DNA of 63,190 nt from Deltaproteobacteria bacterium. Its GTDB lineage: Bacteria > JAMCPX01. The notes under the pieces were generated by a model, which worked only from the letters and a program-made list of their open reading frames with translations, ran no database searches and was not told the origin of the DNA. Numbering within the stretch: the stretch's first letter is position 1; each line of letters starts with the position of its first letter. The stretch covers positions 450 to 63,639 of the forward strand of contig JAMCVD010000036.1 of assembly GCA_023381995.1 (NCBI GenBank). Direction: 5' to 3'. This document shows, piece by piece, positions 80 through 63,190 of this stretch. The position numbers were made by a program, and so were the translations under genes.

Positions 80-96
80 ATAATAACAACCTCCTC

Positions 97-1255: not shown

Positions 1256-1303
1256 AAACCTATTGACTTCACTACCTATTATTTGTAATACAAATATTAA
1301 ACT

Positions 1304-1516: not shown

Positions 1517-1686
1517 GCATATAGACATTATTCCCTGATACCTAGCCTGCCAAACGCTCACTTATAGGACCCTATAATTACCGATCAACTAAATAACTCT
1601 GCTAATAAGATCATCCACAATTGCCTATTTTTACCCGGAATTGATCAATGACTTCGTGGACAATATACCTACAATCTATTTATGAA

Positions 1687-1794: not shown

Positions 1795-2879
1795 ATAACC
1801 TCCTCGTTATATTCTTTCATGGCATTCAAATAATTCTAATTATAATAGAATTACATCATCAGGACAAACAATCAATTATGTATTTATTCATAAATGCAAT
1901 AAGGCTGATGATAGCTATTATGATGACCATACCCCGGATATTGTATTTAATTACCATCTTTAATAATTATTACCTTTTTGAGCAGTATCTATAATTCTCT
2001 ATTTCGAAATTCCATAAATAATACAATGACCTAATAGGGTAATTAATTTATGAATTAATTATCCAGTAATCTCATTGAGATTTATAGATTTGCATCATTC
2101 CAATTAATTACAAGAAGTATACAATTAAAGTAATTCGGTCCTAATTCTTTTTACGACCTGTTTAATTACGATAGTCTTTAATTCCTATCTTCCTTTATGG
2201 TACGAAGATAATTCTAATTACTCCCAGGGTATTATATTAAATGGCCAATTCCTCAATTAATTCCCAATCTAATTATGCTTTCCTATCCCAGATCCGTATA
2301 TCCATCCCGAACTGAGCTCATATATCACCTTCCCCTAGGCCTTCAGGAACGATTTCTGTCATTATGGACGTCCTAAGCTGCCGGTCCATGCCCTGTATTG
2401 CGTGAAAAATGCCTCATTGGCCAATGAATTAGCTCCTAGACAGATATCTATTCATTAAGCTACTTAAAAGCCTTAATTTGCGTTCCTGGTTGATTTAGCC
2501 CCTACCATGGAGATGCATGTCTGCATCGGCATATCATCCAATAGTTTTAGGGCTTCAATATTAATTCATAGCTTATCAAAAATAAACCTTTGGATTCTTA
2601 TTTAATACCATATTGAATAAATTCCTTTTATTAATACCTGTAGCATTAATAATAATAGATAGGTGAACGGTAATTAGAATACAATAAATTTCTCATAAAG
2701 TCCTATGGCAAATCCATGTAAAAGAAATAAGTAAGTAGAGATATAGTAATACAAATATGTAATGGTTATCCCCCTTCTAGAATATGACTACATTTAATGT
2801 AGTGCTCGGGAATAAGCCACTAATGCGAGTTTGCCGCTTTCATGCCAGTTAACGTAAATGAAAGGGTATTCCAAATTAT

Positions 2880-2927
2880 GTAGCACAAAGCGATTTGTGC
2901 TACATATAATATAGCACAACGAGTGCT
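2880..2927. promoter_or_regulatory. Two operator-like palindromes sharing TAGCACAA and flanking a TATAAT hexamer
   Basis: GTAGCACAAA-gcga-TTTGTGCTAC at 2880..2903, TATAAT at 2905..2910, AGCAC-aacga-GTGCT at 2913..2927. Confidence 0.4.
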
Positions 2928-3098
2928 CTCAAATCTATTTTCCTCTTATCAATATCCTTAAAGTTTCTATAGTGGATCTATATTTCAAAAAAGCATTGGC
3001 TTGCGTATGATTATTTTATTGATCTCAAGGATTCTTGTATTTCCTATGCCTCCATCTCTTATAACAGGGACCTATTACCTATAATTATACATAGTATT

Positions 3099-3120
3099 TG
3101 TGGCTGTTTTGTGGCTGTTT
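3099..3120. repeat. Tandem 11-bp direct repeat TGTGGCTGTTT x2, close to the tmRNA 3' junction
   Basis: Read directly. It could be an arm-type recombinase site of the adjacent AT-rich element. Confidence 0.4.
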
Positions 3121-3237
3121 ATAAGCCAAAAATATCTAAAGTTTTACTTTTAATTACAAACATACTAAAACCCGCTAATGCAGGTCTGCAAAGGATTTGC
3201 TAGTAATCAGCCTCAAAAATCAAGACCTTATAAAGAA

Positions 3238-3584
3238 TGGAGGCGGCGGGAGTTGAACCCGCGTCCACAACTATTTTCACCTCTGGCACTACATGTTTAT
3301 CCTGTGTTCAAATGTTCGCTGTCTTCATCCCACGGGCAGGACTCTGACAGCTATTCCATTTGGGGTGCGACCTTGGGTTAAACGGAACAAATCCCCGAAA
3401 TCGCCTTGCTGAAAGGTTTATTGTTGAGACAGCCCGCAAGGTGGCCGTATCAACTCAGCTGCTTTTAATTAAGCAGCGAGTGCGTAGTCGTTTGCGACTA
3501 GTTTTTTCCATCCTTTTAACGAGTAGATGGGACCTCGACATGCACCAAAAGGTTATCTTAGCCGTGTCGAAACCCTTCGCCCCC
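3238..3584 (-). ncRNA. ssrA: tmRNA (SsrA), one-piece. The encoded tag is ANDYALAA.
   Basis: The 5' end GGGGGCGAAGGGTTTCGACACGG pairs with the 3' end GGACGCGGGTTCAACTCCCGCCGCCTCCA, including the G3:U wobble of the acceptor stem. The tag ORF GCA AAC GAC TAC GCA CTC GCT GCT TAA lies at 3469..3495. smpB is directly upstream. Confidence 0.92.
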
Positions 3585-40325: not shown

Positions 40326-41835
40326 TCATGCGGGCCTTCGGCCGGCACCAATAAGAATGAAAATTACTCAGACGCATACAGTATTCCCGTTTCCTGATTT
40401 GCTATGATACTATCCTCTGTAAAAGGAGGATATAAGTATGGAGATAATAATAGACAAAGGATGTGGGTTAGACGTCCACAAAGAGACAGTCGTGGCATGT
40501 GTCATGGGAAGCGGGATAAAGAAGGAAATTCGGACCTACTCTACGATGACCGGAGAATTGTACAAGATGAAGGAGTGGCTCAAAGGACTGGGGGTCACCC
40601 ATGTGGCGATGGAAAGCACGGGGGTCTACTGGAAACCGATATTCAACATACTGGAAGATAGTTTTGAAGTTATTCTCGTCAATGCCCGGCACATAAAGAA
40701 TGTCCCCGGACGCAAGACGGATGTGAAAGACTGTGAATGGATATGTAAGCTATTGCGCAGCGGGCTGGTCAACGGGAGTTTTATACCCCCGAGGGATATT
40801 CGGGAATTGAGAGATTTAACACGCTATCGGAGGAAACTGATAGAGGCGATAAGTGCAGAGAAAAACCGCGTACAGAAAGTGTTGGAAGATGCGAACATCA
40901 AGCTATCATCGGTGGTAACGGATAGTTTCGGTACCAGTGGCAGTGAAATTATAGAGGAATTGATGAGAGGGGAATTAACGATAGACCAGATGGCGGGTCT
41001 TGCTCGCGGTAAACTTATCAAGAAGAAAGAAAAGCTCAAGCAAGCATTACAGGGATACTTTACGGCACATCATAAATTCATGATACAGGTATCGCTGAAC
41101 CACATCAGCGCTATCGAGCAACAGATAGCAGCACTTGATGCGGCGATAGACGAGAAGCTGAAGAAGCATGAGAAGGAATATCAGTTATTACAGACCATAC
41201 CCGGGGTCAAAGAGCACGGAGCATCATCGATCATAGGGGAGATCGGGACGGAAATGGACAAATTTGCGAGCGAGGACCACCTCTCCTCATGGGCAGGGAT
41301 AAGTCCCGGGAACAACGAGAGCGCTGGTAAAAAAAGGAGTGGACACACGACACACGGAGACACCTTCCTCAAAAGCATCTTGGTAGAATGTGCGTGGGCC
41401 GCAGTAAGAACGAAAAACACGTATTTAAAAGGGAAATATCACAGCTTAGCAGGTAGGCGGGGGAAAAAGCGGGCATTGATAGCAGTCGGGCATAAGATAT
41501 TGATTATGTGCTATCACATTATAAAGTATAAACAGTCCTATAAAGAATTGGGGGCAGATTATCTGATACAACAAAGAAAACAACAGATCGTAAGAAGCCA
41601 TGTCAGAATGTTGAAGAAACTCGGCTACACGGTGGACATTAAGCAACCGGCTGCTGCGTAAGAGATTTGAAGAATTTGTAGGGAACAATGTCGGAAAGTA
41701 CTGGTGGTTTTTTTAACCCCGTAACAGAAACTGACAAGGCCGGTTGCAAGAACCAATAATTGTTGTCACAGAGCACGCGGAAGAAAATTTTACATATTCT
41801 AACTGGCCTTTTCCTACAATAAAACAGGGCTCATA
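40326..41835 (+). mobile_element. IS110-family insertion sequence (boundaries approximate)
   Basis: The transposase CDS is flanked by about 110 bp on the 5' side and about 175 bp on the 3' side of non-coding DNA. The left edge is where pabB homology stops. The right edge is the terminal IR of the IS21 remnant. Confidence 0.55.
40438..41661 (+). CDS. IS110-family transposase (DEDD RuvC-like domain plus Transposase_20 domain)
   Basis: GLDVHKETVV, VAMESTGVYW and GRKTDVKDCEWI (DEDD), with QTIPGV...A..IIGEIG in the C-domain. AGGAGG SD. Confidence 0.92.
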   Translation: MEIIIDKGCGLDVHKETVVACVMGSGIKKEIRTYSTMTGELYKMKEWLKGLGVTHVAMESTGVYWKPIFNILEDSFEVILVNARHIKNVPGRKTDVKDCEWICKLLRSGLVNGSFIPPRDIRELRDLTRYRRKLIEAISAEKNRVQKVLEDANIKLSSVVTDSFGTSGSEIIEELMRGELTIDQMAGLARGKLIKKKEKLKQALQGYFTAHHKFMIQVSLNHISAIEQQIAALDAAIDEKLKKHEKEYQLLQTIPGVKEHGASSIIGEIGTEMDKFASEDHLSSWAGISPGNNESAGKKRSGHTTHGDTFLKSILVECAWAAVRTKNTYLKGKYHSLAGRRGKKRALIAVGHKILIMCYHIIKYKQSYKELGADYLIQQRKQQIVRSHVRMLKKLGYTVDIKQPAAA

Positions 41836-41965: not shown

Positions 41966-42439
41966 TCAAGCCTTCCTTTGTTTTCTCATAGATTCCCCGG
42001 TAAGTTCAATCTTATATGCATTATGGACAAGCCGATCCAGGATGGCATCTGCAATGGTAGGGTCCATCATCACATCATGCCAGTTTTTAACAGGCAGTTG
42101 GCTGGTAACAATGGTAGACCTCAGTCCATGTCTATCTTCCATAATCTCAAGCAAGTCACGGCATTGGTGTTCTGTGAGTTTGGATAATCCAAAGTCATCA
42201 AGCACAAGAAGGTCTATCTTGGAAAAGGTTGTGAGTAGTTTATTGTATCTGCCATCTCCCTTTGCAATACCAAGTTCCTCAAGCAGTCGTGGCAATCTCT
42301 GATACAGGGCTTTGTAACCTTGTCTATATGCACTGTTTGCAAGGGCACAGGCAATATAAGATTTCCCTATACCTGTAGGTCCTGTTAAAAGGACGTTTTG
42401 ATAGTCTTTAATCCATTCACATGAGCCAAGCTTTAGCAA
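41966..42439 (-). pseudogene. istB: IstB-like ATPase, N-terminally truncated
   Basis: Walker A GPTGIGKSY, LLVLDDFG, ADAILDRLVHNAYKIELTGESMR. About 90 N-terminal residues are missing. Upstream DNA reads as istA C-terminal fragments in other frames. Confidence 0.8.
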
Positions 42440-42907: not shown

Positions 42908-43384
42908 TTACGGTCGATTACAGGTATCGTTGTTCCACAGTAGTCTACAAACAGCTTCTCCTCCTGCCTTGTGATCCTGACGCATCACAACATCCAGCTT
43001 GCCTAACCACCTACGATAAAGCTGACAGAACCGGGTATATTGGTACCCATCAGGATATTGCTCCTTGTATTCCTGCCATAAAAGGGCTTTCGTTACATCC
43101 TTATTTTTGAGCTCTTCATGTACTTTTGACCAGTCAGGCTCAATCCTTGAACATGACAGAGTATTCAAAGTACCCTTGAACAACAGCCTCTCAAGTCCTG
43201 CATCGTCTATATCCGGGGAAATCGGCCATGTTAAGCCTGTCTGCTTTGCCCTGCGGATATAATCAGCTACAGTAGGTCTGGATACACAGCAACTGAGTGC
43301 TATCTGACGGTTACTGAGACCATTCTCATACTTTAAACGCAATATCTCTTTAACCTTACGCATGGTTATTCGCTCCCTTGGCAT
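42908..43384 (-). pseudogene. istA: IstA transposase N-terminal fragment (HTH domains), frameshifted after about 145 aa
   Basis: MRKVKEILRLKYENGLSNRQIA..SRPTVADYIRRA and LWQEYKEQYPDGYQYTRFCQLYRRW. The DDE core is absent or fragmented downstream. Confidence 0.8.
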
Positions 43385-43553: not shown

Positions 43554-44372
43554 TTATCTCACAAGGTACTCTGAATGAACAGTTTTAAAGAGGTATGGGA
43601 TAAAAAAGAATGCAACTATTGATAAGAAAAATAGGACAATGGTCAATAGTGCAGATCTTCTCCCAACCCAGTTTCTGTTAAGTCTGAGATGCAGGAATAG
43701 TCCGTATGCAAGCCATACTACGAGTGACCATGTCTCTACGGGATCAAATCCCCAGTACCTGCCCCATGCATTGTTTGCCCATATAGAGCCTGCTATTATC
43801 ATTATAACACAGAAAGCAAAGCCCAGTGCATTAAACCTGTAGATAGCGATATCGAGCTTATCTAAAGACTGGTGAGGCAACAACTGTTTATGTTTATCAT
43901 TGTCTTTATAGAGATAAAGCACAGCGCTTCCAAATGCTATGAGAAATGAGCCAACAGTAAGCTTTGCAAACAGCACATGAAGGACAAGCCAGTAGCTTCT
44001 TAGTGAGGGCGGAAGCGGTATATCCCTTGCAGATGCCATTAAGCCGAAACCGAGGGCAAGGAAGATTACGGGGATCACAACAAATGACGCCTGTTTTAAA
44101 AAAGTCAGCCTTTTTTGTACAAGAAGATAAAACAACATCGCCACCCATGTATTGGAGCTTATAACCTCGTACATGTTAATATAAGGACCGTGTCCAACCC
44201 TTATCCATCTTATGAGTATCGAGGCACCGTGAGGCACAAGGCCGATAGCACATAATAAAAGTGCGATATGAGTAAGCCTTTCTTTTTTGAACACGAATCC
44301 GATGATAGCAAAGATACTGCCAAACCCGTACAGACTTACGGCAATCCAGTAAAGGATGATTTCTTCTTTCAT
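43554..44372 (-). CDS. ccsA: System II cytochrome c biogenesis protein CcsA (ResC)
   Basis: WWD-type haem-handling motif WANNAWGRYWGFDPVETWSLV. Multi-TM. ATGA overlap with resB. Confidence 0.9.
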   Translation of the reverse strand: MKEEIILYWIAVSLYGFGSIFAIIGFVFKKERLTHIALLLCAIGLVPHGASILIRWIRVGHGPYINMYEVISSNTWVAMLFYLLVQKRLTFLKQASFVVIPVIFLALGFGLMASARDIPLPPSLRSYWLVLHVLFAKLTVGSFLIAFGSAVLYLYKDNDKHKQLLPHQSLDKLDIAIYRFNALGFAFCVIMIIAGSIWANNAWGRYWGFDPVETWSLVVWLAYGLFLHLRLNRNWVGRRSALLTIVLFFLSIVAFFFIPYLFKTVHSEYLVR

Positions 44373-51368: not shown

Positions 51369-51384
51369 AGCAAATTTCGTGCCA
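51369..51384 (-). promoter_or_regulatory. Consensus sigma-54 (-24/-12) promoter TGGCACGAAATTTGCT
   Basis: GG and GC are at the canonical spacing. It lies 25 nt upstream of the ATG of the NHL/sorting-signal gene, and an AAAGGAGG SD follows. Confidence 0.75.
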
Positions 51385-51590
51385 AAATGCAATAAATACT
51401 AAACATATCCATTAAGCCCCAAAACGCATTTAAAAATAACCCAAGCTTCGCTTGTGTGCCCGGGTTGGGTGTCTCGAGCGAACGAGCAAATTCCTGTCTG
51501 CGTGTAACGCACAGGCAGGTTCTTATTGCATTTTTTGGATAAATGGAAGCATCACAATACATAGCGACTTAAACGTAGTTATAATCCGCT

Positions 51591-52766
51591 TCATCTGTTA
51601 AATGGATTAAAATAAGGGCCTGGTATACCTGGATTATAATTAAATGGCTTAAGGGCTGGATGTGTTTTTGTAGTTGTTGTGAAAAGATTTGGCGTTGGAT
51701 TATGATCGACACCATGGCAGCTTAAAAAGCATTCTACATTACTCTGCGTTTTAAATACAACGTTAAGTCTGCCTGCAGAGTTTGGCAGTACAACGGTAAA
51801 CCTCGGATCCTTGTTAAACCTGATAAGATCAGGATAATTGATTGAGCCGTGTGAGTCGTGACATGTAAAACAAGAGGCCTGTGCATTCACTACATGTTCT
51901 CTGTGATACAAAAAGCTCTGGTTGCCCAGTATGCTTGTCCTGTTATGGCACTGGTAGCATAATGCATAAGCATACTCACTCTCAGGCATACCGTCCTGCT
52001 TGTTATAATTCTTGTTCAGTATCGGTGCGTATAGAGAGCCATGCGGTGAAGAACCGCCTACGGTATTGTCGGAGCTGTGGCAATTGGTGCAGTTTACATA
52101 GCTTGATGTTGTCCATGGAGGGATCAGACTTGGGACAAGATAATTTTTTCCCGGCGACTCAACAGGATGATAGGATGCGTTTGATGGATTAAACTCTACC
52201 GCCTTGTCCGTTTCATAAGGCGGAAGGGGCTGGTTTGCGTGGCATTCAAAGCAAAGCTCGTATTCATAGTGCATACCGCTGTTAAACCATAGCATCTTTC
52301 TCTGACCTTGTTGAGATATACCTGCTGACTCTAAATGATGAGGGCTATGGCAGTCAATGCATTCAGCATGACGCGATGTACTGTTTACCTGTCCGTACTT
52401 TTGCTCCATAACCGTCATGTATGAAACTGTATCAAGAGGGTGATGTGACGGCTTTTGAAAATCCTGCTCAACATCGGGTATGCGGGGTATGGGTGATGAC
52501 ATCAAGAGCATACCTGAAAGCCTTGCCTTATTCTGTTCCTGTGCATTGCCATGACATTGAAAACACAGGCTTGAGCCGTTTTTTACGAGCATGGGTGTTC
52601 CGGCAATACCATGCCCAGCATGACAGCTTGCGCATCCCTTGGGTAGAGAGAGGTGCGGGTTTGTCGTATTTACGGCTTCTGCATACACCTTACACTGTAG
52701 TATATTGTATGATACCAAGCCGACAACAATCAGTAAAAGTATTCTCTTCATAGTCATATCCATCAC
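51591..52766 (-). CDS. Multihaem c-type cytochrome (7 CXXCH plus 1 CX3CH)
   Basis: Signal peptide. CASCH, CFQCH, CIDCH, CFECH, CTNCH, CYQCH, CFTCH and CFLSCH. Confidence 0.9.
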   Translation of the reverse strand: MMDMTMKRILLLIVVGLVSYNILQCKVYAEAVNTTNPHLSLPKGCASCHAGHGIAGTPMLVKNGSSLCFQCHGNAQEQNKARLSGMLLMSSPIPRIPDVEQDFQKPSHHPLDTVSYMTVMEQKYGQVNSTSRHAECIDCHSPHHLESAGISQQGQRKMLWFNSGMHYEYELCFECHANQPLPPYETDKAVEFNPSNASYHPVESPGKNYLVPSLIPPWTTSSYVNCTNCHSSDNTVGGSSPHGSLYAPILNKNYNKQDGMPESEYAYALCYQCHNRTSILGNQSFLYHREHVVNAQASCFTCHDSHGSINYPDLIRFNKDPRFTVVLPNSAGRLNVVFKTQSNVECFLSCHGVDHNPTPNLFTTTTKTHPALKPFNYNPGIPGPYFNPFNR

Positions 52767-53506
52767 ATCTTATGACAGGCTATACAAACCTGCGTAGTAT
52801 TGGATTTTCTTAAAAAATGCACGCCAGAGGCGGAAAAATTATCATCCTGATGCGGATTGTGGCACGATGTACACTGCACCTCATTATTGCGGTCAAGCCT
52901 TACCCCATTAGGATCATCTTCCATCTCCGTCATACTTGCAAGGTTTGAACCTGTAACATAGCTCTGCGTAATCATCTTTTGTGTTACAACAAAGGATATG
53001 GGATGACTGCCGGAAAGGTTTGTTCCGAGATACCCCTTTGATGTTGACGGCATGGTTGTTATGTTGTTCTGCATGGGGATTGATGAACTCCTGCTCCTGA
53101 CCTGTCCAATGGCTATGGTACCGTCATGGCAGCTCAGACACAGCTTTGATGCCCCATCAGGTGTCACAGGTTTACCGCCCGGTGACAGTGATTCGAGGCT
53201 ATTGGACCAGTACATATTGTAATTTGTGCCTGTATTCAGCTTCTTGTTCCACAGAGGCGTGTTCGGCTCAGCATCATGCGGGGTATGACAGAATATACAC
53301 ACCTGTTTCTCTGTTGTGGACTTTATCCTGCCGGGACCGGATACGGACAGATTATGCAGTGTATTCAGAACACTTCCGGCATACGCAAGACTGCAGCTCA
53401 GTAATAATAACATTACCGGTAAAAAAATTACAGCCGCTCGCTTTACAAACAGTGAAACATGGCTGTCTCTTTGTTTATTGATGTAGTGCTTCATTCTTTG
53501 TATCAC
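52763..53506 (-). CDS. Tetrahaem c-type cytochrome (doubled-CXXCH type, 247 aa), paralogue of 59321..60064
   Basis: HNLS...CIFCHTPH, CLSCHDG, CTSCHNPH, CIACH. Confidence 0.9.
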   Translation of the reverse strand: MIQRMKHYINKQRDSHVSLFVKRAAVIFLPVMLLLLSCSLAYAGSVLNTLHNLSVSGPGRIKSTTEKQVCIFCHTPHDAEPNTPLWNKKLNTGTNYNMYWSNSLESLSPGGKPVTPDGASKLCLSCHDGTIAIGQVRSRSSSIPMQNNITTMPSTSKGYLGTNLSGSHPISFVVTQKMITQSYVTGSNLASMTEMEDDPNGVRLDRNNEVQCTSCHNPHQDDNFSASGVHFLRKSNTTQVCIACHKM

Positions 53507-54527
53507 CTATCCTTTTAAATATATCAATCCTGTTGTTTAGCCCATCTGCAACATAAATGTAGCTATGCTCAACAGCTATGCCTGCCGGCATTGATAACTC
53601 GCCGTCATCTGTCCCATGTCTGCCAAATGTCATAAGATAATCCCCTTTACCGTTAAACATCTGAACCACATCAAACAATGCATCGGTTATATAAATGATG
53701 CCGTCAGAATCCACTGCTATGCTTTTGGGTCTGGCAAAATCACCGCTTCCATCCCCCTGTCTGCCGAAGGATGATATGAATTTACCGCTCAGTGAAAACG
53801 TCTGGATCCTGAAGTTAAGGCTGTCAATGATGAATACCGTGTTATTTTTTATTGCAATGGCTGTTGGAAAATTAAATTCACCTGCCCGATCTCCATGTGA
53901 GCCAAAGGAAAATTTGGGCTTACCCTTATCATCATATACAAAAACCCTGTTCATGCCGGTATCTACAATGTATACATCTCCGTTCTGTGCAACGGCAACA
54001 GAGGTGGGTCTGATAAACGAGCCATTGTTTATGTTCCCAATACACCTGCCTCTGCTGCTTATGATAAATATAGTTTTTTGGGAAGAATCCGCAACATATA
54101 TTCTCTTACCTGTTATTGCTATGCCTGTCGGTGCGGTGAAATATGAGGCTCCGCATTTACTGATAACAGCAAAGCTGTTATTACCTTTATCAAAAAGTAT
54201 CACATTCGATGCCTGTATATCCGTAACCCCTATAACCCCTTTGTAAGCAGCGATCGCAAAAGGAGGAAACCTGGTGCTGTACCGGCTGTTTTCACCTGCG
54301 ATAAAATTGAATATCCGTGAAAACCAGCCCGGCTTGATGCCAAGATCGTTTGCAGAGTATACAGAGCGCACATAGTATATTCTTGGGTTGTTTTCAGGCC
54401 AGACAATGTTTACGGCTTTAACATGCGGTGCATGCGCACAAGTAGAAAGGATGGATATGATGAACACACCTATACCCAAAAATGAAATGCGGGTGGGTGC
54501 CTGTTCCAACCCTCTCAACTTTATCAT
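53475..54527 (-). CDS. NHL-repeat six-bladed beta-propeller protein (exported, possibly a lipoprotein)
   Basis: Repeated ..P.GIA.....IYV.D..N.RI..F motifs. The N-terminal IVWPENNPRIYY box is shared with 60214..61248. Confidence 0.85.
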   Translation of the reverse strand: MIKLRGLEQAPTRISFLGIGVFIISILSTCAHAPHVKAVNIVWPENNPRIYYVRSVYSANDLGIKPGWFSRIFNFIAGENSRYSTRFPPFAIAAYKGVIGVTDIQASNVILFDKGNNSFAVISKCGASYFTAPTGIAITGKRIYVADSSQKTIFIISSRGRCIGNINNGSFIRPTSVAVAQNGDVYIVDTGMNRVFVYDDKGKPKFSFGSHGDRAGEFNFPTAIAIKNNTVFIIDSLNFRIQTFSLSGKFISSFGRQGDGSGDFARPKSIAVDSDGIIYITDALFDVVQMFNGKGDYLMTFGRHGTDDGELSMPAGIAVEHSYIYVADGLNNRIDIFKRIGDTKNEALHQ

Positions 54528-54540
54528 TCTTTAACTCCTA

Positions 54541-55422
54541 TCATTGTTCTTTCACCTCCGGTATTGGTTGTATAGGTATACGCATCTTAAACTCGGGCAG
54601 CGGCGATTCAAAGGTATTCTGTTTGACGGTATTGGGCTTCCTGTCGGGCTGTGTGCTTGACTCGGTTACTTCAACACTCTTAACGTTATTGCGTAATTGA
54701 GAGGAAGAATATATACCAATGCCCAGCATAATATGCATCTCACCCTTTCCTGTATAAGACATGCCGCCACCAATGCCTGCCGATAAAACGGCCGAGCTAT
54801 CGGCAAAATAGTATCTTGCACCTGCAGTACCTTCAACCCTGTTTTTAAAACCGGTGCTGTTGACGATCCAGTTGTCTGTATCAAAAAGTATATTCAATTG
54901 CTCTCCTACCCTGTAAATTATACCGCCACTTAAGATGACCGCTCTTAGTACCGATAAGTAGCCTGTACTGAAAATGAGATCAAATTTATTCAAATGCCTC
55001 TCAATAATCTCCCGTATATCTATTGACGGATGCCCTGAAAGGTTGTCACCAACCACACAAGTGGCGATCTCCGGTCTTTGCAGGTACCGCCATTTTACCC
55101 CTGCGATCATGCCTATACTGTTTTTCTCATAAAGCAGTTGATAGTCGTTATAATGTACAGCACCGATCATAAGCTCCAGGTCATTCAGTGCACCGAATGA
55201 TACGGTAACAGGCGAAACATTAAAGTTATCTGTTCTCTCCTGTTTATAGTATCCTGCCCATACGCTGTAAAGGGATACGCCGCTATTCAATGTGGACGCA
55301 TCCGGTACATCAAATATACCTGATAATCCGTTCTTGTACGGCGCTGCATGGAGTGCCCCGGCAATAACGAGTATCAGCAGCATTGATATACATAATTTCA
55401 AAGCAATATTCCTCAGCATCAC
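54541..55422 (-). CDS. Exported protein, possibly YjbH/outer-membrane-like. The C-terminus is Pro/Gln-rich.
   Basis: Signal peptide LLILVIAGALHA. GLSGIFDVPDASTL resembles the YjbH-family N-terminus. Beta-rich composition. Confidence 0.45.
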   Translation of the reverse strand: MMLRNIALKLCISMLLILVIAGALHAAPYKNGLSGIFDVPDASTLNSGVSLYSVWAGYYKQERTDNFNVSPVTVSFGALNDLELMIGAVHYNDYQLLYEKNSIGMIAGVKWRYLQRPEIATCVVGDNLSGHPSIDIREIIERHLNKFDLIFSTGYLSVLRAVILSGGIIYRVGEQLNILFDTDNWIVNSTGFKNRVEGTAGARYYFADSSAVLSAGIGGGMSYTGKGEMHIMLGIGIYSSSQLRNNVKSVEVTESSTQPDRKPNTVKQNTFESPLPEFKMRIPIQPIPEVKEQ

Positions 55423-57608
55423 GGCAATTCCTCATGCAGTCTCTTCAAAAATGTATGCAAGCTCCACAGATCTGGATCATTTAAAGCACCGGTATATAGT
55501 GTCTTATTCATCTTTATTGCCATGGCTATGTTTCTTTGTGCCTCGGGTTGATTGCCCAACCTTGCATAAGCACATGCAAGGTTGTAGTATACATACGGAT
55601 CGAGCTGCTTTACTGCCTTTAATAGAGATAACGCCTTATCATATTTTTTCAACCGTATGTAGAGCGATGCAAGGTTTACAGCCGTATCTTTTTGATCAGG
55701 ATTTAGCTCCAACGCATGCTTATACGCGTGCAGTGACTGATCGTATAAACCAAGATGCTCGCTTGCCTCTCCCTGCAATTCAAACAATGTATAATCGTAT
55801 GGATCAAGCTTCTGTGCCTTTTTAACGGTATTCAGTGCCGCGGTGTAGCTGCCCTCTCTTATAAGTACCACTGCCCGGTCGCTCATGATACTCGCCTGAA
55901 CAACGGGAGAAAAAAAAGCAAGCCTGTATGCCATATTAAATTGTTTCATTGCATTGCTGTAATCACCTTTGTCCGAATAAAGTATGCCAAGCCATCGCCG
56001 CGCCTGAAGATAGTAAGGAGATAGGTCTACAGTATCTTTCAGATCCTCGAAAGCCCCTGCTGCGTTTCCACGATTGATTCTAATCATTGCCCTGTCAAAA
56101 AAATAGTTTTCATTAAAAGGCGCCTGAGTAATGGCATAAGAAAGTTTATCTTCAATTTCATTCTCAAACTTATTCGGCATTGCATGCTCCTGTTTAAACA
56201 GGGTATCGGCAAAAATATATGATCTTTGGGCAATGGCTATATGAAAAGCGGCAATGAATACCAAGAAGCTTAAGACCACAAGCACATAGTTGATAACCTT
56301 CCATACATAAGGCTTTATATTAAAATTGTTATCAGCGTATAAACTGGCGATGCCGGAATACATCCAGAATAAAAAGCCCGTTGCAGGCATTCTAAGAGGG
56401 AATGAGAATAAGCCGATAATAAGCAGACTGACAAATCCGAGGAACCCGCCGATGAGGGCAGGCATGTCTTTTCCTTCAGCCTTTGATATGCCGCATGTAA
56501 ATACATATAGTATATAAATAAGTAAACCCGTAAATATCAGGATGCCGGGAATGCCTGTTTCCGATAGTATGTTGAGGTATTCGTTGTGTGCATAGTTCAT
56601 GGTAACGTGGTTCGAAAACGTCATCATGGATAACGCCCTATCAGCATAGAGAGGGAATACGGCATCAAATGCGCCAAACCCGATGCCTGAGACCGGATGC
56701 GATGGTACAAGCGATACGAGTATTGATTTCCATGTAAGCAATCTGACGATGTTATCGGAATAATGTATATTGAATATAGATGTGAAATAACCGATCAAGC
56801 TGTTTGTCTGACTGGATATCAAGGACAGCAAAAAAGCTCCTGCAGCCACTATGCCTGCAGCGTAGAGAGGAGACAGATTTATCGTGACTTGTCTTTTTCT
56901 TCTTATATAAACAAGGAGAGCGATGCTTACAAGACTTACAACAATCAAAGCAACCCATGAAGCCCTTGAATGTGAGATTATAACATAAAGTATACCTCCC
57001 ATTATCGCAATACTGAGGACAATGCTGTTCCACAGTTTTTTCCTGAAAATGAACTGGCCAATAAGCAAAGGCAAGACACTGACGATGTACTCTGCACCGA
57101 AATTGGACAGCCCAAAGGTAGATACTGGATTTATCCTGCCATACTGATCAGCGGGTATATAGCCGAACAAACCGGTAATCTGAACAATGCCTATTGATAC
57201 ACTTATTATAACCGCAATGGCAGCAGCAAGTGTAAGCAGGCCCACATCGTCCTCATCCGGTGCCAGTATAATCAAAGCAGGATAGATAAAAAATGGACCA
57301 AGTACTTTTATGATTTCAACAAACCCCTTTATAGGTACTTCTGAGAATATTATAGAAATAACAATCCATACACCCATTATGCCTGTAAACAGCATTACGC
57401 CGGGTATTTTTGCAGGCATTTTATGCCGATGGATCACAGAAGCAAGACCAAAGAATATAAAAGCAGAGAAAGCAGAAAATGTGATCTTGATCCACTCATA
57501 CTCCCATCCCCATTTAATAAGAGGCATTATGAAGCACCAAAAAACCATGATTGATAACAGAGAATTTAAATACCTATTCACCAATATAGCCTCCAAAGTT
57601 CCTCCCAA
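55419..57608 (-). CDS. O-antigen ligase-like (Wzy_C) polytopic membrane protein fused to C-terminal TPR repeats
   Basis: About 11 TM segments with a large loop typical of the Wzy_C/PglL/WaaL family. The C-terminal 250 aa consists of TPR units. Confidence 0.7.
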   Translation of the reverse strand: MGGTLEAILVNRYLNSLLSIMVFWCFIMPLIKWGWEYEWIKITFSAFSAFIFFGLASVIHRHKMPAKIPGVMLFTGIMGVWIVISIIFSEVPIKGFVEIIKVLGPFFIYPALIILAPDEDDVGLLTLAAAIAVIISVSIGIVQITGLFGYIPADQYGRINPVSTFGLSNFGAEYIVSVLPLLIGQFIFRKKLWNSIVLSIAIMGGILYVIISHSRASWVALIVVSLVSIALLVYIRRKRQVTINLSPLYAAGIVAAGAFLLSLISSQTNSLIGYFTSIFNIHYSDNIVRLLTWKSILVSLVPSHPVSGIGFGAFDAVFPLYADRALSMMTFSNHVTMNYAHNEYLNILSETGIPGILIFTGLLIYILYVFTCGISKAEGKDMPALIGGFLGFVSLLIIGLFSFPLRMPATGFLFWMYSGIASLYADNNFNIKPYVWKVINYVLVVLSFLVFIAAFHIAIAQRSYIFADTLFKQEHAMPNKFENEIEDKLSYAITQAPFNENYFFDRAMIRINRGNAAGAFEDLKDTVDLSPYYLQARRWLGILYSDKGDYSNAMKQFNMAYRLAFFSPVVQASIMSDRAVVLIREGSYTAALNTVKKAQKLDPYDYTLFELQGEASEHLGLYDQSLHAYKHALELNPDQKDTAVNLASLYIRLKKYDKALSLLKAVKQLDPYVYYNLACAYARLGNQPEAQRNIAMAIKMNKTLYTGALNDPDLWSLHTFLKRLHEELP

Positions 57609-59265
57609 GCTGGATAATCAATCCATGAACAACGCTGTCAGCGCCCGGTATGTGCTGGTTAATCAAGTATCCTCTTATATTGAGAAACAGCAGACGGTAG
57701 TAATGTGTTACATAAACCTCATACCTTGTATACTCTGATGATGGGTAATATGACGCGCTATTGAATCCGCGTTGTAAAACTATACTTGCAGCGGTATTAT
57801 GGATGGATGTTACGGCAAGCGTTGTTGAAATGTATTGGTTTCTGTACCATGCCTGAGGCGTGGAATTGCTGAGAAGCCCTCCTGTGAGCGAGAATAAACC
57901 AATGTGTGTTACAGGCAGGGAGAATATAAGATTCAGCATACGATTGTATAAAGGGTACTGGTTATAGAAACCGTTTTGAAATACCCTTTCGTATGTAAAA
58001 TTGGATTGAAGATAGGCAGGCTTGAAATAAGCGCTATAGAGCTGTGCAAGATAGCGGAAGTCATCAAGATTATTACCTGAGCCCTGCGTGTATCTTGTGA
58101 TCATATAGTTCACGTCATTGTAGACATTAAAGAATTTAAAATCCTTCGTGCCTATACCGCCGTCAAGATAATTGGCATGCGACAGCCCCTGACCTGCAGG
58201 CGGATTTTGTAGCATTGCAACTGCGATGTTATACCCTGCGTTTACATAGTAGTGGTCCCATGGCTTTAAATAGGTAATGCCTCCCTGTAAAAATTCTGTA
58301 TCCATTGAGCTGGTGCCTGCATCACCGGAGCTTTTTGAATCTATCACATAAATACCGTTTAAAAGACTTACGGTGTTTGTTGCACGATAATAAAGGTTAT
58401 AGCCTGCCTGCGTACCCTGAGCACTGCCACTGCTGTAGGCAGTTGTGTTATAGTCGGCAAAATAGTTTGTAGTCATTCTCCAGTCAGGGGTACTCACAAG
58501 GTTTGTATATATATTCAGTTGATCTGTCGAAACCGTTGTCTGCGACGGATATGTATACGCAAAATTATAGGTGCTTAACCCTGTATAGAGGTGTAATGTC
58601 TTGTTAAAGGTTTTATTGTCATTAACAGCAAAACCATTTGTAGTGTAATTGTTGTTTGTGATAAGATCATTCTGCGTAGTATACTGGTATTGACCTGTTA
58701 ATACGTTATCCCTGTCTGCCTTTGAAAACGATACAACAGAGGTTGTTCTGTCCTGCTTGAATGGGTAGGGAACGCCGGATGTCGAGTCGCGTGTTTTATC
58801 AAGAATAATGTTGAATCTTGGAAGAGAGTTTATGGCAATGGCCCAGTTCAAGCCATAAGAAAATGTATGCATCTTGAGTAAGTAGCCTGTACCTGTGTCC
58901 TGCTCGTTATATATGTCTCTTATATAGGACAGCAGCGGGGAGCTATCAGGCAAAAGGGTGAGGTTTAATGCATAGCCCGTCGTATACCTTCTTAATCCGC
59001 CTCCACCGGTCATGTAATCTATATCATCAATGTTGAGGCCTGACGAAAATACGGCGAGTCTTGGATCGTATATGTAGGTTGCGAAGTTAAGTCCAAGTGC
59101 ACCGGCGAATCCTCTTGTATAGATGGAGGTGTTATTATAATCGGCAAGGTAGTCCTCGTATCTTAAACTTGTCTGTCCTCCTATATAATACCTGTGGGCA
59201 TATACATTGATTGGTAAAAAGAGCACGCATACGATTATCAGGATATATCTTTGCATTACTTTCAT
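57574..59265 (-). CDS. Predicted large outer-membrane beta-barrel protein (about 563 aa, rich in Tyr/Asn/Thr/Gly)
   Basis: Signal peptide ILIIVCVLFLPINVYA. Long series of alternating-hydrophobicity strands. GAGGTG SD before the ATG at 59265. Confidence 0.5.
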   Translation of the reverse strand: MKVMQRYILIIVCVLFLPINVYAHRYYIGGQTSLRYEDYLADYNNTSIYTRGFAGALGLNFATYIYDPRLAVFSSGLNIDDIDYMTGGGGLRRYTTGYALNLTLLPDSSPLLSYIRDIYNEQDTGTGYLLKMHTFSYGLNWAIAINSLPRFNIILDKTRDSTSGVPYPFKQDRTTSVVSFSKADRDNVLTGQYQYTTQNDLITNNNYTTNGFAVNDNKTFNKTLHLYTGLSTYNFAYTYPSQTTVSTDQLNIYTNLVSTPDWRMTTNYFADYNTTAYSSGSAQGTQAGYNLYYRATNTVSLLNGIYVIDSKSSGDAGTSSMDTEFLQGGITYLKPWDHYYVNAGYNIAVAMLQNPPAGQGLSHANYLDGGIGTKDFKFFNVYNDVNYMITRYTQGSGNNLDDFRYLAQLYSAYFKPAYLQSNFTYERVFQNGFYNQYPLYNRMLNLIFSLPVTHIGLFSLTGGLLSNSTPQAWYRNQYISTTLAVTSIHNTAASIVLQRGFNSASYYPSSEYTRYEVYVTHYYRLLFLNIRGYLINQHIPGADSVVHGLIIQLGRNFGGYIGE

Positions 59266-59281
59266 AAAGAGACTGCACCTC

Positions 59282-59306
59282 AAAAAAAGGGGGGCTTTCG
59301 CCCCCT
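59282..59306 (-). terminator. Strong intrinsic terminator (GGGGGC-GAAA-GCCCCC followed by T7) downstream of the tetrahaem gene
   Basis: Minus strand reads agagggggcgaaagcccccctttttttgag. It sits between the stop at 59321 and the next start at 59265. Confidence 0.8.
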
Positions 59307-59320
59307 CTGAAGAAGCAGTT

Positions 59321-60064
59321 TTATTTTATGTGACAATCAAGACAGAGCTGACTGCTTGTTATCGCATCCCTTAATAACAAAGGATTTACCGAGCCGTGAA
59401 CAGCATGGCAGCTTCCGCATTCAATACCCTTACCTATCCCACCATTGGGATCACCGAACAGCAACACCTTTGTAGGACTTGCCTGGAACTGAGAAATATT
59501 TACGCCGCCACCAGTGCTGATACCGTTGTACGGCGAGTATCCGGGATACGGGATACCAATGGGATGATTGCCGTTCATATTGCCACCGACCCCGACCTCA
59601 TATGTTGTATTCGTCAACTGGTATGACGCGTTCACATCACCTTGCATGGGTATGGAGTAATTTGAATTAACAACGCCTGTTGACTCGTTAAACACCTCGT
59701 TGACCTGGCCTATTGCAACCGAGCCGTCATGACACGCAATACATTTGAATGACGGCAGGTTTGCCGGGTTTGTGGGCAGTACTGTTCCACCTGATGTTCC
59801 TGTTGCGCTGCCGGTGCCCCATATCCATGTTGTATTTATTGATGCTGCATGGTTCCATATAAACCTCTGATCAAGAGCATGGTGAGGGGTATGACAGAAC
59901 ACGCATACCTGGCTCGTACCACCTGATGTTGTTGCCTGTGATCGTGTGTAATTCGTTGAGCTTGCCGATAGATTATGCTTGGTTGTAGTAATAGCCGCGT
60001 TAGCTATTACAGTTAGCCCCACCAGTAAGGCTAACATTGATACTGCAAAACTTATCTTTTTCAT
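59321..60064 (-). CDS. Tetrahaem c-type cytochrome (doubled-CXXCH type, 247 aa)
   Basis: Signal peptide. HNLS...CVFCHTPH, CIACHDG, CGSCHAVH, CLDCH. Has its own SD, a promoter-like element and a terminator. Confidence 0.9.
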   Translation of the reverse strand: MKKISFAVSMLALLVGLTVIANAAITTTKHNLSASSTNYTRSQATTSGGTSQVCVFCHTPHHALDQRFIWNHAASINTTWIWGTGSATGTSGGTVLPTNPANLPSFKCIACHDGSVAIGQVNEVFNESTGVVNSNYSIPMQGDVNASYQLTNTTYEVGVGGNMNGNHPIGIPYPGYSPYNGISTGGGVNISQFQASPTKVLLFGDPNGGIGKGIECGSCHAVHGSVNPLLLRDAITSSQLCLDCHIK

Positions 60065-60070
60065 TGCTTT

Positions 60071-60097
60071 TACCTCCTTTTTATCATTAAGGAGGTA
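60071..60097 (-). promoter_or_regulatory. Perfect 9-bp hairpin pairing the SD of the tetrahaem gene with an upstream anti-SD (TACCTCCTT-N9-AAGGAGGTA)
   Basis: Read directly. The 3' arm is the AAGGAGGT ribosome-binding site, 6 nt before the ATG at 60064. Confidence 0.55.
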
Positions 60098-60112
60098 TCA
60101 GGAATCATGCCA
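60097..60112 (-). promoter_or_regulatory. Sigma-54-like element TGGCATGATTCCTGAT. The -24 half is identical to that of the promoter at 62388..62403. The -12 GC is degenerate.
   Basis: TGGCATGAT is shared 9/9 with the upstream promoter. At the -12 position it reads CTGA instead of TTGC. Confidence 0.3.
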
Positions 60113-60116
60113 GTTT

Positions 60117-60197
60117 GTTTCACCCTTTTGATCATTATTCACAGATTAAAAGCGCGTTTTCACCCCTAGCCCATACGGGAATTGGGTGTTTTCACCC
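60117..60197. repeat. Three direct copies of GTTT(T)CACCC (minus strand GGGTGAAA(A)C) upstream of the sigma-54-like element
   Basis: Copies at 60117..60125, 60156..60165 and 60188..60197. The last copy is embedded in a nested stem-loop at 60174..60205. Confidence 0.6.
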
Positions 60198-60213
60198 ACC
60201 CGTATACTGAAAA

Positions 60214-61248
60214 TCAATGTTTATTTGCCCGTTTTTCCGTATTGATTAATTGATATACATTAACCCTGTAGCTATAGCTATCTGCGACATAAATACGATT
60301 ATTTTTATCTATCGCAATAGCAGTTGGTATGATCAACTGTCCTGGTCCAATACCAGGTCCACCAAAATACATCAAAGGCTTCCATTCCTTTGTAAACATC
60401 TGTACCGCATGAAAATCAGAATCTGCAATATAGATATTTCCGTATGTATCAAATGCTATGCCCTTTATCCTGTCAAATGTGCCGGGGGCATCGCCCTCTA
60501 CCCCAAACTTGCCAAGAAACTTTCCATCAGGGCTAAACCATTGAACCCTGAAATTCATTGTATCGCTTACATAGAGATCCCCATTACTATTAACAGCAAG
60601 GTATGTAGGGAAATTGAACTCTCCATCTCCAGTGCCTCTTTTACCAATGGTTTTTATATATCTTCCCTTCATGGTGAATACCTTTATGTCATGCCCCTTT
60701 GCCTCATTAAATGCCGTATCCGCCACATAGAGTAGCTCCTTTGTTCTATCCATTGCAAGACCCGTAGGCCTAAGAAACATGTTAGCGCCAATATCTTTGA
60801 TGAACTTACCATGTTTATCAAACACCCTTACAAGCTTCAAGGAAGAATCAGCAACATAGACATTTTCGTCCTTATCCAGTGCTACACCAAATGGATTTAC
60901 AAGATGGTATCTTTGGTCCGTGCCAATGTATCTTACTTTCTTTTCTTTAAAATCAAACACGAACACAGCACCAAGCTGATAATCCGTCACATAAACACGC
61001 TGTGCGTCATCACTGATGGCAATTCCCATGGGCTGAACAAGCGAGGGTTCTTGTTTAGGACCGAGTAAAAAGTTAAGAAACCTTTGCCATGCGCTTTGAG
61101 GAAAATCATATCGCCCATGAAGTGCTTCAATATATTCTATATGCGGTTTATTGGGAGGCAGGGGCCATACGATCTTGTCCGGCTTTATCCCGGCAGCAGC
61201 ACAACCTGTAAATATAATAAATAAAAGCAATAAAATTCTTTTCATCAC
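60214..61248 (-). CDS. NHL-repeat beta-propeller lipoprotein
   Basis: Lipobox IIFTGC. Six NHL-type blades. Paralogue of 53475..54527. Confidence 0.85.
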   Translation of the reverse strand: MMKRILLLLFIIFTGCAAAGIKPDKIVWPLPPNKPHIEYIEALHGRYDFPQSAWQRFLNFLLGPKQEPSLVQPMGIAISDDAQRVYVTDYQLGAVFVFDFKEKKVRYIGTDQRYHLVNPFGVALDKDENVYVADSSLKLVRVFDKHGKFIKDIGANMFLRPTGLAMDRTKELLYVADTAFNEAKGHDIKVFTMKGRYIKTIGKRGTGDGEFNFPTYLAVNSNGDLYVSDTMNFRVQWFSPDGKFLGKFGVEGDAPGTFDRIKGIAFDTYGNIYIADSDFHAVQMFTKEWKPLMYFGGPGIGPGQLIIPTAIAIDKNNRIYVADSYSYRVNVYQLINTEKRANKH

Positions 61249-61254
61249 ACCCCC

Positions 61255-62328
61255 TTACCAGTTTGATTCTTTGCCATGACATCTTTTACACATATCTAGC
61301 TTTGTTTCACCGGCATACCACATATAAGGGTGATTAGATGAATGCGGATTATGACAGCTTATGCAGGTAAGTGGCTTGCCTTTCAGCTCCTTCATATCAT
61401 ATACACCTGACACAGGATGAGGCTTGTTCTGCGGGGTCGTAAAGACATGATACCCATCAGCCTGTTTTTTATGGCATGTTGCGCATAGCTCATTTACAGG
61501 CTTCTTCAACATGAAATCATTGTTCGTGCCGTGCGGATCATGGCATGCTGTACAGCCGTATTTTTCTATGGCAGGATGCACAACCTTGTCCTTGTCTTTT
61601 GGCTCATGACACATATAGCAGAGTTCCTTGCCTCTTGCGGCGAGCATATAAGGATTATCGGAAGCATGAGGGCTATGGCAGTTTGTGCATTCACCGCCTG
61701 CAACAGCAGGGTGTATTACCCTTCTTCCCGTTAGATCGTCTGCATGGCAGATAAAGCATGTATTGCTTACAGGAGAGGGCTTTCTTAAAAGATGGTCATG
61801 CTCTGATTCATGGGCATGATGGCATGTAAGGCACTTCCCAAGTTTTACAGCAGCATGTACATAAGTTTTTTTTATCATATCCTTATGACACGACAAACAT
61901 AGCCCCGCCATGTTATTGATAGGTTGAACAAGGTAGATGTCCCTGTTGTCTTGTCTCTGGATAAAAACCGGTCCCATTATCATACCTTTTGTTCTCAATA
62001 AATAGTTGTTATTTTCAGAATGTGGATTATGACACATCACACATCGGCCCTGTGCAACGGGTGGATGCACATCCTTTTTTGTGTTTTTTTTATCGTGACA
62101 CGTATAGCACAGCGCTGGAACACGGGCAGAGAGTGTGAATTTATGATTACCTTTTGCCGGCACATGACAGTCCTTACATCCCATGCTGTCAAGCGCCGGA
62201 TGTTTAAAAGAGCCTGATAAAATGCCTGTATGACACTTTGAAGTTGTGCAACCTTCACTTGTGTCAGCAAGACTTACTGCAGGTACTAATATTATTATTC
62301 CTACTATTAAGGACAATTGTTTTATCAT
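61255..62328 (-). CDS. Multihaem c-type cytochrome (12 CXXCH plus an N-terminal CX4CH), c3/c7-like repeats
   Basis: Signal peptide. CTTSKCH, CKDCH, CYTCH, CVMCH, CLSCH, CLTCH, CFICH, CTNCH, CYMCH, CTACH, CATCH, CISCH, CKRCH. Confidence 0.9.
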   Translation of the reverse strand: MIKQLSLIVGIIILVPAVSLADTSEGCTTSKCHTGILSGSFKHPALDSMGCKDCHVPAKGNHKFTLSARVPALCYTCHDKKNTKKDVHPPVAQGRCVMCHNPHSENNNYLLRTKGMIMGPVFIQRQDNRDIYLVQPINNMAGLCLSCHKDMIKKTYVHAAVKLGKCLTCHHAHESEHDHLLRKPSPVSNTCFICHADDLTGRRVIHPAVAGGECTNCHSPHASDNPYMLAARGKELCYMCHEPKDKDKVVHPAIEKYGCTACHDPHGTNNDFMLKKPVNELCATCHKKQADGYHVFTTPQNKPHPVSGVYDMKELKGKPLTCISCHNPHSSNHPYMWYAGETKLDMCKRCHGKESNW

Positions 62329-62387
62329 TAAATCCTTATTCTACATAAACGGTGATATAGATACATCTCCACTTTGTTAGAAAAGTA

Positions 62388-62403
62388 AGCAAACATCATG
62401 CCA
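62388..62403 (-). promoter_or_regulatory. Sigma-54 (-24/-12) promoter TGGCATGATGTTTGCT upstream of the first cytochrome gene
   Basis: Canonical GG/GC spacing. About 60 nt upstream of the ATG at 62328, with an AAGGA SD. Confidence 0.7.
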
Positions 62404-62411
62404 ATTGTGGA

Positions 62412-62717
62412 TTATTTGATGTTGTGTTTTTTCATCCTGTACCGCAGGGCATCCCGCGTAATAGACAACGCCTGGGCAGCTTTGGTCTGATTGCCCTCCG
62501 CGAGGGCAAGTGCCTTGAGGATGAGTTCCTTCTCGACCTTTTCGAGTTCCATGGAACTGTAGTGATCGGTACCGGCCTCTTCCGGGGATTCTATGAGTTC
62601 TATGGGTAGATATTCTTTTTTGAGTATTTTATCGTTCGTCAGAAGGATCATTCTTTCTATAATATTTTTTAACTCCCTCACGTTGCCGGGCCAGACGTAC
62701 TGCATAAAATAATTCAC
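62412..62717 (-). pseudogene. C-terminal remnant of a sigma-54-dependent transcriptional activator (end of the AAA+ domain plus the Fis-type HTH)
   Basis: YVWPGNVRELKNIIER and GNQTKAAQALSITRDALRYRMKKH. An in-frame stop lies 6 codons upstream of the first homologous residue. No receiver or AAA+ core is present. Confidence 0.8.
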
Positions 62718-62787
62718 CTGAATTCCAATGCATTTTTAGTCACTACACTTTAAGTAGACTTTTGTCAATCGATTTTAAAATATTGTC

Positions 62788-62841
62788 ATTTAAACTTGAA
62801 AAGTGCACTGATTTTGGGTGATTTAAACTTGAAAAGTGCAC
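62788..62841. repeat. Two 21-bp direct repeats ATTTAAACTTGAAAAGTGCAC (33 bp start-to-start) preceded by TGTC. Candidate terminus of a transposable element extending rightwards.
   Basis: Copies at 62788..62808 and 62821..62841. They lie about 70 bp beyond the break point of the truncated activator gene. Confidence 0.4.
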
Positions 62842-63190
62842 CAATGTAAACGATATTGATTAGTTTAAAGAGAGTAGTAGGTTTTATAAATAATGATAGA
62901 AACAATCTGAATAAAAAATAACAAACTGTTTCATAATGAATGCAAAGTTTATTATACGGACTTTATGGCGTGCAGTTTCTCATATATGATACGTTAACAA
63001 AATCTAATACAACCCTATAAATGGGTTTTTATATACATAAGATCAGCGCGACTATGGGATTTTCGGAAGAAACTTACGCTTTCATCCTCGCAGAACCACT
63101 TCAAACCGTAAGGTCTTGCTATATGGAATATGGTAGTAGACATAATCTTTCTTACGGGAGCCCTCGGGAGGCTTAACGTACGATTTTTTC

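Follow-up and report, generated by a model that had tools for sequence, protein, structure and literature searches.

A sigma-54-wired OmcE-type cytochrome island with an insertion-truncated local activator and its probable activation in trans by a resident kinase-regulator pair

The DNA analysed here, referred to as the window, is a stretch of 63,190 nucleotides (nt) from an uncultured deltaproteobacterium (contig JAMCVD010000036.1, here C118, positions 450-63639), and the contig ends at the right edge of the window. The source genome (GCA_023381995.1) is a metagenomic bin of 2.1 Mb in 134 contigs that is 84% complete; it and the genomes compared with it are referred to by our own numbers for genomes (G), contigs (C) and loci (L). 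The subject is a low-GC block of multihaem cytochrome genes with two sigma-54 promoters, P1 and P2, and a third sigma-54-like site, P3, in which P1 is directly preceded by the remnant of an NtrC-type regulator gene; all genes concerned lie on the minus strand. A preliminary description of this DNA, made from its letters, had proposed that the cluster is driven by sigma-54 promoters while the adjacent activator is truncated. The comparisons reported below point to a sigma-54-wired OmcE-type island whose local activator was cut by an insertion sequence (IS) and which would be activated in trans by an intact kinase-regulator pair encoded on contig C79 of the same genome, an account that we consider rather probable as a whole.

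The genes downstream of P1 (51591..62328; annotated by Pfam and PDB homology) encode, in order, a 357-residue 12-haem cytochrome, an NHL beta-propeller lipoprotein, a 247-residue OmcE-like tetrahaem cytochrome, a 569-residue putative barrel protein for which the Pfam scan gave no match, a Wzy_C-TPR protein, a 293-residue protein, a second NHL propeller and two more cytochromes. Past a gap of 247 nt follow the genes downstream of P2 (43554..51343; annotated from open reading frames (ORFs) and Pfam), which encode a 456-residue NHL-type protein, a B12-binding radical SAM enzyme, a 931-residue multihaem cytochrome, ResB and CcsA. A PDB search identified the 247-residue tetrahaem protein as a full-length OmcE homologue (7TFS, E 4.7e-22; 9YUQ, E 6e-15). 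According to the passages of PMC13712944 cited here, the minimal omcE cluster of Desulfuromonadia combines OmcE and a large barrel with two multihaem cytochromes and two beta-propeller lipoproteins, and has homologues in five phyla including Nitrospirota. The predicted gene set of the island fits that cluster, with an OmcE homologue, two NHL lipoproteins, a large putative barrel, multihaem cytochromes and resB/ccsA nearby; unlike the cluster of those passages, it lies in a low-GC, IS-bounded island and has in addition a second OmcE-sized tetrahaem gene, the radical SAM enzyme and the 931-residue cytochrome. The same passages name transcriptional regulators among the cluster genes and mention no sigma-54 control.

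The GC content of the island is 42.9% and that of the regulator remnant 45%, as against 53-62% in the neighbouring core genes. Since the left 6-37 kb of the contig have this genome-typical GC content (53-62%) and carry core genes including pyrG, mis-binning of the contig was rejected, and the low-GC block is read by us as a horizontally acquired genomic island. It is missing from both same-genus genomes and present in G006, a genome of another genus of the same family, where the first cytochrome is 85% identical at the amino-acid level.

Sigma-54 sites were defined by GG at -24, GC at -12 and exactly 10 nt between them, in the context TGGCAC-N5-TTGCW. P1 (TGGCATGATGTTTGCT, 62403..62388, minus strand) has one mismatch to the consensus and P2 (TGGCACGAAATTTGCT, 51384..51369, minus strand) has none. 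Both sites had been named in the preliminary description, and they proved to be sound: the spacing is exact, both are intergenic with no long ORF over either and on the same strand as the gene downstream, and both are conserved in G006, which holds the only close orthologous island available for promoter comparison. P1 lies 9 nt past the stop codon of the remnant and 60 nt before the ATG (62328) of the 12-haem cytochrome gene, and P2 lies within the 247-nt gap, with 26 nt separating it from the ATG (51343) of the NHL-type gene. With the usual geometry P1 would give a leader of about 48 nt and P2 one of about 15 nt; a Shine-Dalgarno sequence is present in both, AGGAGG in the case of P2. In G006, P1 is identical over 18 of 18 nt (TTGGCATGATGTTTGCTT) between flanks that align poorly on both sides, and P2 is found as TGGCATGTTTCTTGCT, 29 nt before the orthologous start codon, with TGGCA.G and TTGCT kept and the spacer changed. 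The motif scan of the window proposed earlier, allowing at most one mismatch, gave four hits including P1 and P2, with 2.05 expected and four or more in 16 of 100 shuffles, so that the count alone is not significant, unlike position and conservation. The whole 2.1-Mb genome contains 14 sites for TGGCACG-N4-TTGCW (at most one mismatch, GG and GC fixed), and only a few of these, P1 and P2 among them, lie outside genes in the right orientation with a long ORF starting 25-60 nt further on. Furthermore, rpoN is intact on C70, where 23781-24254 matches Sigma54_DBD at 204 bits in a 455-residue open frame. By their position and conservation, P1 and P2 are well-supported candidates for sigma-54 promoters marking operon starts, and with rpoN present the sigma-54 wiring suggested earlier for the cluster is upheld; from this we infer that the island depends on RpoN.

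P3 (TGGCATGATTCCTGAT, 60112..60097, minus strand) precedes the OmcE-like tetrahaem gene. The earlier statement that it shares the -24 half is correct, whereas as a promoter it is not canonical, having GA and not GC at -12. It is kept in G006 as TGGCATGAATCCTGTT, and at the equivalent position before the OmcE-like gene a canonical site is found in both G012 (TGGCATATTTTTTGCA) and G035 (TGGCATGTTTTGTGCT). As P3 lacks the C of the -12 GC and its counterparts in those two genomes are canonical, it is most readily regarded as a weakened sigma-54 site; closely upstream, at 60163..60134, there is a sigma-70-like match. Another near-consensus motif, the fourth, is TGGCAGTATCTTTGCT (44322..44307, minus strand), which was rejected as a promoter: it is identical in G006 and lies about 50 nt inside ccsA, within the first 25 codons, so that its identity probably reflects coding conservation. 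The arrangement resembles the NtrBC/glnAp2 and ZraSR systems in its GG-N10-GC elements at -24/-12, in the receiver (REC), AAA+ and Fis-type helix-turn-helix (HTH) domains of the intact relatives of the remnant and in the presence of rpoN. It differs from them in that the local activator is only a 101-codon stump and that no upstream activator sequence or IHF site was identified here.

The remnant (62412..62717, minus strand) corresponds to the last 101 codons of an NtrC-type regulator. Pfam matches in it are positions 34-83 of the 87 of AAA_lid_14 and HTH_8 (E 1.3e-13, residues 58-98), so that it is composed of the C-terminal half of the AAA+ lid, a linker and a Fis-type HTH; in the PDB it aligns with residues 210-301 of ZraR and also with the C-terminal 90 residues of the NtrC and NifA structures. 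Neither a receiver domain nor the AAA+ sigma-54 interaction domain with its GAFTGA loop (Sigma54_activat) was matched in it by Pfam. This agrees with the earlier characterization of the stretch as the last 100 or so residues of a sigma-54 enhancer-binding protein lying upstream of the cluster and devoid of sensory and ATPase core. Because only positions 34-83 of AAA_lid_14 are left and Sigma54_activat is not matched, the remnant is, judged by its domain content, not a functional enhancer-binding protein.

The full-length gene for a 447-residue REC-AAA+-HTH regulator in G005, a genome of a sister genus, is 94-95% identical to the remnant at the protein level and about 96% at the DNA level. This homology extends from the stop codon to 62715, about where the DNA derived from the enhancer-binding protein ends and is replaced by an IS inverted repeat; the genome's own gene on C79 is 74% identical to the remnant in protein. 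Between codons 9-101 and the G005 gene there are about nine synonymous changes, one non-synonymous change and no frameshift, and either the cut is recent relative to the divergence from G005 or the gene was still complete when the differences arose. The first eight codons (62694..62717, minus strand; ..NYFMQYV) resemble the gene of the same-genus genome G001 (LNYFMQYN), and as the rest is nearly identical to G005, the remnant copy looks mosaic. On these identities the remnant is to be taken as an extra, foreign copy from a donor related to the sister genus, and not as the genome's own gene.

At 62716 the regulator gene meets an IS4/IS1634-like element at the terminal inverted repeat of the latter, and it is this element that accounts for the loss of the local activator proposed in the preliminary description. 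The right end of the element (62716..62783, minus strand) consists of the terminal inverted repeat (ACCTGAATTCC...TTTTTAGTCACTAC) and the last 13 codons and stop of the transposase gene. A complete copy on C92 (about 3000-4660, with a DDE_Tnp_1 transposase) has matching ends, and the same terminus ends C119; the element presumably belongs to IS1634 specifically. A search of the bin for the other end of this IS copy gave only the copy on C92. The IS is itself interrupted by a second repeated element (62784..62866), which is 89% identical to C115:5463-5550, starts with TGTCAT, holds two direct copies of TTTAAACTTGAAAAGTGCAC and is probably the end of another mobile element. The last feature of the contig is a short dispersed repeat (63170..63190) with two copies on C129 and further copies on C98 and C96, having the form (A/G)GCTTAACGTACGATTTTTTC followed by CGAATTCTGCG. 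It is because of this terminal repeat that two assemblies stop at the right edge of the window: an independent assembly of run SRR10252151, by Logan, matches the sequence at 100% identity over 890 nt, all junctions included, and its contig continues for 10 nt more within the same repeat. The earlier suggestion that a better assembly might contain the intact gene is thus not borne out by this second assembly, which gives the same junctions.

Since the junction lies at an IS terminus and is reproduced by the second assembly, the truncation does not come from the contig edge and is, on this evidence, a real insertion junction. A contrary explanation would be that the truncation is a minority allele or a chimeric metagenome join and that most cells have an intact regulator upstream of P1. 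The incompleteness and fragmentation of the metagenomic bin would allow this, as would the end of the contig in repeats only 470 nt past the regulator/IS junction; it is nevertheless very improbable, given that the junction falls exactly at the inverted-repeat terminus, that the IS copy is diverged (83% identical to that on C92) and has a further element nested in it, unlike a repeat-collapse artefact, that a second assembler yields the identical sequence and that neither the missing 5' part of the regulator nor the 5' part of any second such gene was found in the bin. The exact sequence joining the remnant stop to P1 had 0 matches in metagenome contigs, and a search there for relatives returned only proteins at most 38% identical. 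The exact junction at a terminal inverted repeat, the full DDE_Tnp_1 copy elsewhere and the contig breaks at other copies are as in IS-mediated pseudogenisation, with the differences that only one end is visible here and that the IS is itself interrupted by another element; the loss of the regulator is an ordinary kind of gene decay.

Whether the stump might still act as a protein was considered as well. It would have to be expressed, for instance by read-through from the IS transposase gene, which abuts it on the same strand, and its lid-plus-HTH product of about 97-101 residues would sit on the enhancer sites and damp or reshape activation. The frame is open and without decay, with the low non-synonymous count given above, and an internal ATG gives a 97-residue product that the gene caller accepted; isolated C-terminal domains of NtrC-type proteins can dimerise and bind DNA. 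Against this, the N-terminus owes its origin to the chance position of an IS junction, an in-frame stop precedes it by 7 codons, a Shine-Dalgarno sequence is not evident, no enhancer site was identified, and with about 10 differences in all the low non-synonymous count fits divergence before the truncation equally well; such a role of the remnant is to be regarded as most improbable. Little more can be said for the specific form in which the IS-made stump is transcribed from the abutting IS and its product, with the recognition helix of the resident activator, competes or forms mixed dimers at the enhancer sites of the island, which is likewise highly unlikely; if true, what had been an activator gene would through the insertion have become a damper built into an electron-export island acquired not long before.

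The account favoured here, activation in trans by the C79 pair, starts from the distribution of the regulator orthogroup. In the family, this orthogroup is part of a conserved block of housekeeping context, era-der-yihY-kinase-regulator, followed in several genomes by dnaX-ybaB-recR, and its kinase-regulator pair was found in eleven of the eleven other family genomes examined, only one of which, G006, has the island. The genome's own block is intact on C79. The genome search for a full-length paralogue that had been recommended earlier thus leads to the C79 regulator, whose HTH is nearly identical to that of the remnant: 42 of the last 48 residues are the same and 6 differ, and both have the recognition helix (T/S)RDALRYRMKK. 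Because of this shared recognition helix and these 42 of 48 identical residues, the C79 regulator is the best candidate to fire P1 and P2, and it would be the likeliest trans-activator.

On the cognate nature of the stump, this housekeeping setting within the family points another way than the more distant genomes do. There, at six or more other distinct loci, the orthogroup lies beside homologous cytochrome clusters that have sigma-54 promoters. In G012, a REC-cytochrome-NHL-tetrahaem operon diverges from the kinase and regulator genes, and TGGTATAGTTTTTGCA and the site before the OmcE-like gene mentioned above are present. In G035, the pair diverges from genes for a 357-residue 12-haem cytochrome (53% identical), an NHL protein and a tetrahaem protein and a 565-residue barrel-sized gene, with AGGCATGTTTTTTGCT and again the canonical site mentioned above as sigma-54 motifs. 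The order is kinase, regulator, AGGCACATATATTGCA and 13-haem cytochrome in L051, and regulator, TGGTATTAAAATTGCA, REC and cytochrome operon in L067/L083, while in L049/L066, L052 and L064 the regulator lies within a few kb of a homologous cytochrome cluster. The pairs of G012, G035, L051 and L049 all have their best match in this genome on C79. Judged by gene order, the kinase/activator pair of these clusters recurs beside them in several phyla, and the order regulator-promoter-cytochrome seen in L051 and L067/L083 makes the layout in the window a natural one, so that the term cognate-looking, applied to the truncated activator in the preliminary description, was reasonable. The activator beside the homologous cluster of G035 (L022, C108, 4200..5722, minus strand) is split by a frameshift, the end of the lid and the HTH continuing in another frame after residue ~349; the split would be due to a sequencing error, or the regulator has decayed here independently for a second time.

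In every partner kinase read (C79, G005, G012, G035, L049 and L051), one CXXCH motif is located between two membrane segments. The top PDB match of the periplasmic domain of the C79 kinase is 3B42, the haem-c sensor domain of GSU0935, nearly full length and weak (E 0.06), and the partner kinase is a probable c-haem sensor. The single periplasmic CXXCH is shared with the GSU0935 and GSU0582 sensors of Geobacter sulfurreducens (PDB 3B42 and 3B47), which differ in being chemoreceptors and not kinases, the match to them being weak as stated; moreover, the remnant is not accompanied by a kinase gene in the window.

Six other sigma-54 activators are encoded in the genome, on C2, C7, C19, C24, C53 and C127, and one of them, instead of the C79 orthologue, might drive the island. 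Besides their number, it speaks for this possibility that the activator on C7 is also paired with a CXXCH kinase and that the one on C2 lies beside a 13-haem cytochrome gene. Their HTH regions are only about 35-45% identical to that of the remnant, though, and the cluster-linked pairs of other genomes are closest to C79, which makes control by one of these six decidedly unlikely. The C7 locus (12..3529) comprises the single-CXXCH kinase and the sigma-54 activator with a 185-residue gene between them, in a low-GC stretch by an RND efflux system; it was rejected as the partner pair because its HTH is unrelated and its neighbours are the efflux system. On C24 (36608..37620), an activator gene with an ORF of 269 residues is followed 160 nt on by TGGCATGCTATTTGCT and a 470-residue ORF, the same regulator-promoter-target layout.

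For the activity of the C79 regulator on the island from a distance, the island of G006 is instructive. It has no adjoining activator, yet P1 and P2 are kept in it, which shows that an island of this type can persist when its activator is distant. The preliminary description had left three options side by side, namely a silent cluster, activation in trans by another enhancer-binding protein and modulation by the HTH fragment; the conservation of the promoters in G006 lends the best support to the second.

Twelve promoters, taken from five genomes and locus L051, were searched for enhancer sites over the 260-350 nt upstream of each, in the form of shared palindromes (arms of 5-8 nt) and of 8-10-mers allowing one mismatch. 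Two recurrent candidates were rejected: TTTCAGTAT is the coding or formerly coding end (..FQY) of an NHL gene, and ATTGCATTT is not kept between orthologous promoters.

Several observations weigh against activation of the island by the C79 pair. No convincing shared enhancer motif was found upstream of the twelve promoters, and before P1, P2 and P3 no upstream activator sequence is shared in this genome or in G006. The perfect palindromes TTGCCCTCGCGGAGGGCAA and AGTTCCATGGAACT upstream of P1 were discarded as well, being situated in the coding sequence of the remnant and broken by synonymous changes in orthologues. Upstream of P1, the similarity to G006 stops at the -24 element, and the original enhancer of P1 may for that reason be gone; without it, activation of P1 may have to come from solution or from sites further away. 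As the pair is present in all eleven other family genomes and the island only in G006, the pair must have other targets. Any of the six other resident sigma-54 activators could be the real activator, and the genome at hand is a bin of 84% completeness.

In the option of a silent cluster, the island would have been orphaned: the activator destroyed, the enhancer of P1 replaced by unrelated DNA, the promoters unfired and the genes decaying. The failure to find an enhancer motif, the junction with foreign DNA only 9 nt upstream of P1 and the surrounding IS debris (an IstB fragment, an IS110 element and nested ISs) would all suit such a fate. It is difficult to reconcile with it that the ORFs of the island from 43554 to 62328 are without exception open and of full length, in synteny with G006, that P1 and P2 are intact, and that in G006, also without an adjacent activator, the promoters have been conserved under divergence; an orphaned island is therefore rather unlikely.

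With activation by the C79 pair as the favoured account, the history of the locus can be outlined as follows. As the similarity to G005 ends at the stop codon of the regulator gene and P1 follows 9 nt later, the island would have lain directly behind the regulator gene in a lower-GC donor related to the sister genus, and would have arrived with this activator gene immediately upstream of P1. An IS4/IS1634-like element would then have inserted in the activator gene, leaving its last 101 codons, and a second element would later have hit the IS. The operons would start at the sigma-54 promoters P1 and P2, with P3 as a weakened third site. Clusters of this type would normally be partnered with a membrane histidine kinase carrying one periplasmic CXXCH and an NtrC-type activator, and in this genome the resident intact C79 pair would activate the island in trans. 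Both parts of this account, a sigma-54-controlled OmcE-type island and an activator inactivated by an IS, are of known kinds, and the biology is plausible; no new mechanism is revealed. It would show in concrete terms how an OmcE-type island for extracellular electron transfer may be regulated in an uncultured lineage, and would be a natural example of a transferred island whose own activator has been destroyed and which must rely on the orthologous regulator of the host. Such an account would be useful for the heterologous expression of such clusters and for predicting when these organisms make cytochrome filaments.

The IS debris at the left border of the island comprises an intact IS110-family transposase gene (40438..41661, plus strand), an IstB fragment covering profile positions 82-235 (41966..42439, minus strand) and a gene for a 158-residue HTH protein (42908..43384, minus strand). 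In G006 (L020, C64, 9783..11560), the whole island is located about 1 kb 3' of smpB and the tmRNA gene (tag ANDYALAA), a neighbourhood that is a classic integration site of islands; the intervening kilobase between the tmRNA gene and the island is AT-rich and without a clear gene. In G012 and G035, TTTCAGTAT codes for the ..FQY C-terminus of the NHL protein, which indicates that the end of the NHL gene has shifted. Past the stop of the first NHL gene in the window (60140..60215, minus strand), TTTTCAGTATAC is found together with hairpins containing GTGAAAAC, and in G006 (L020, 13730..13930) about 130 nt of the 3' end of the NHL gene are duplicated.

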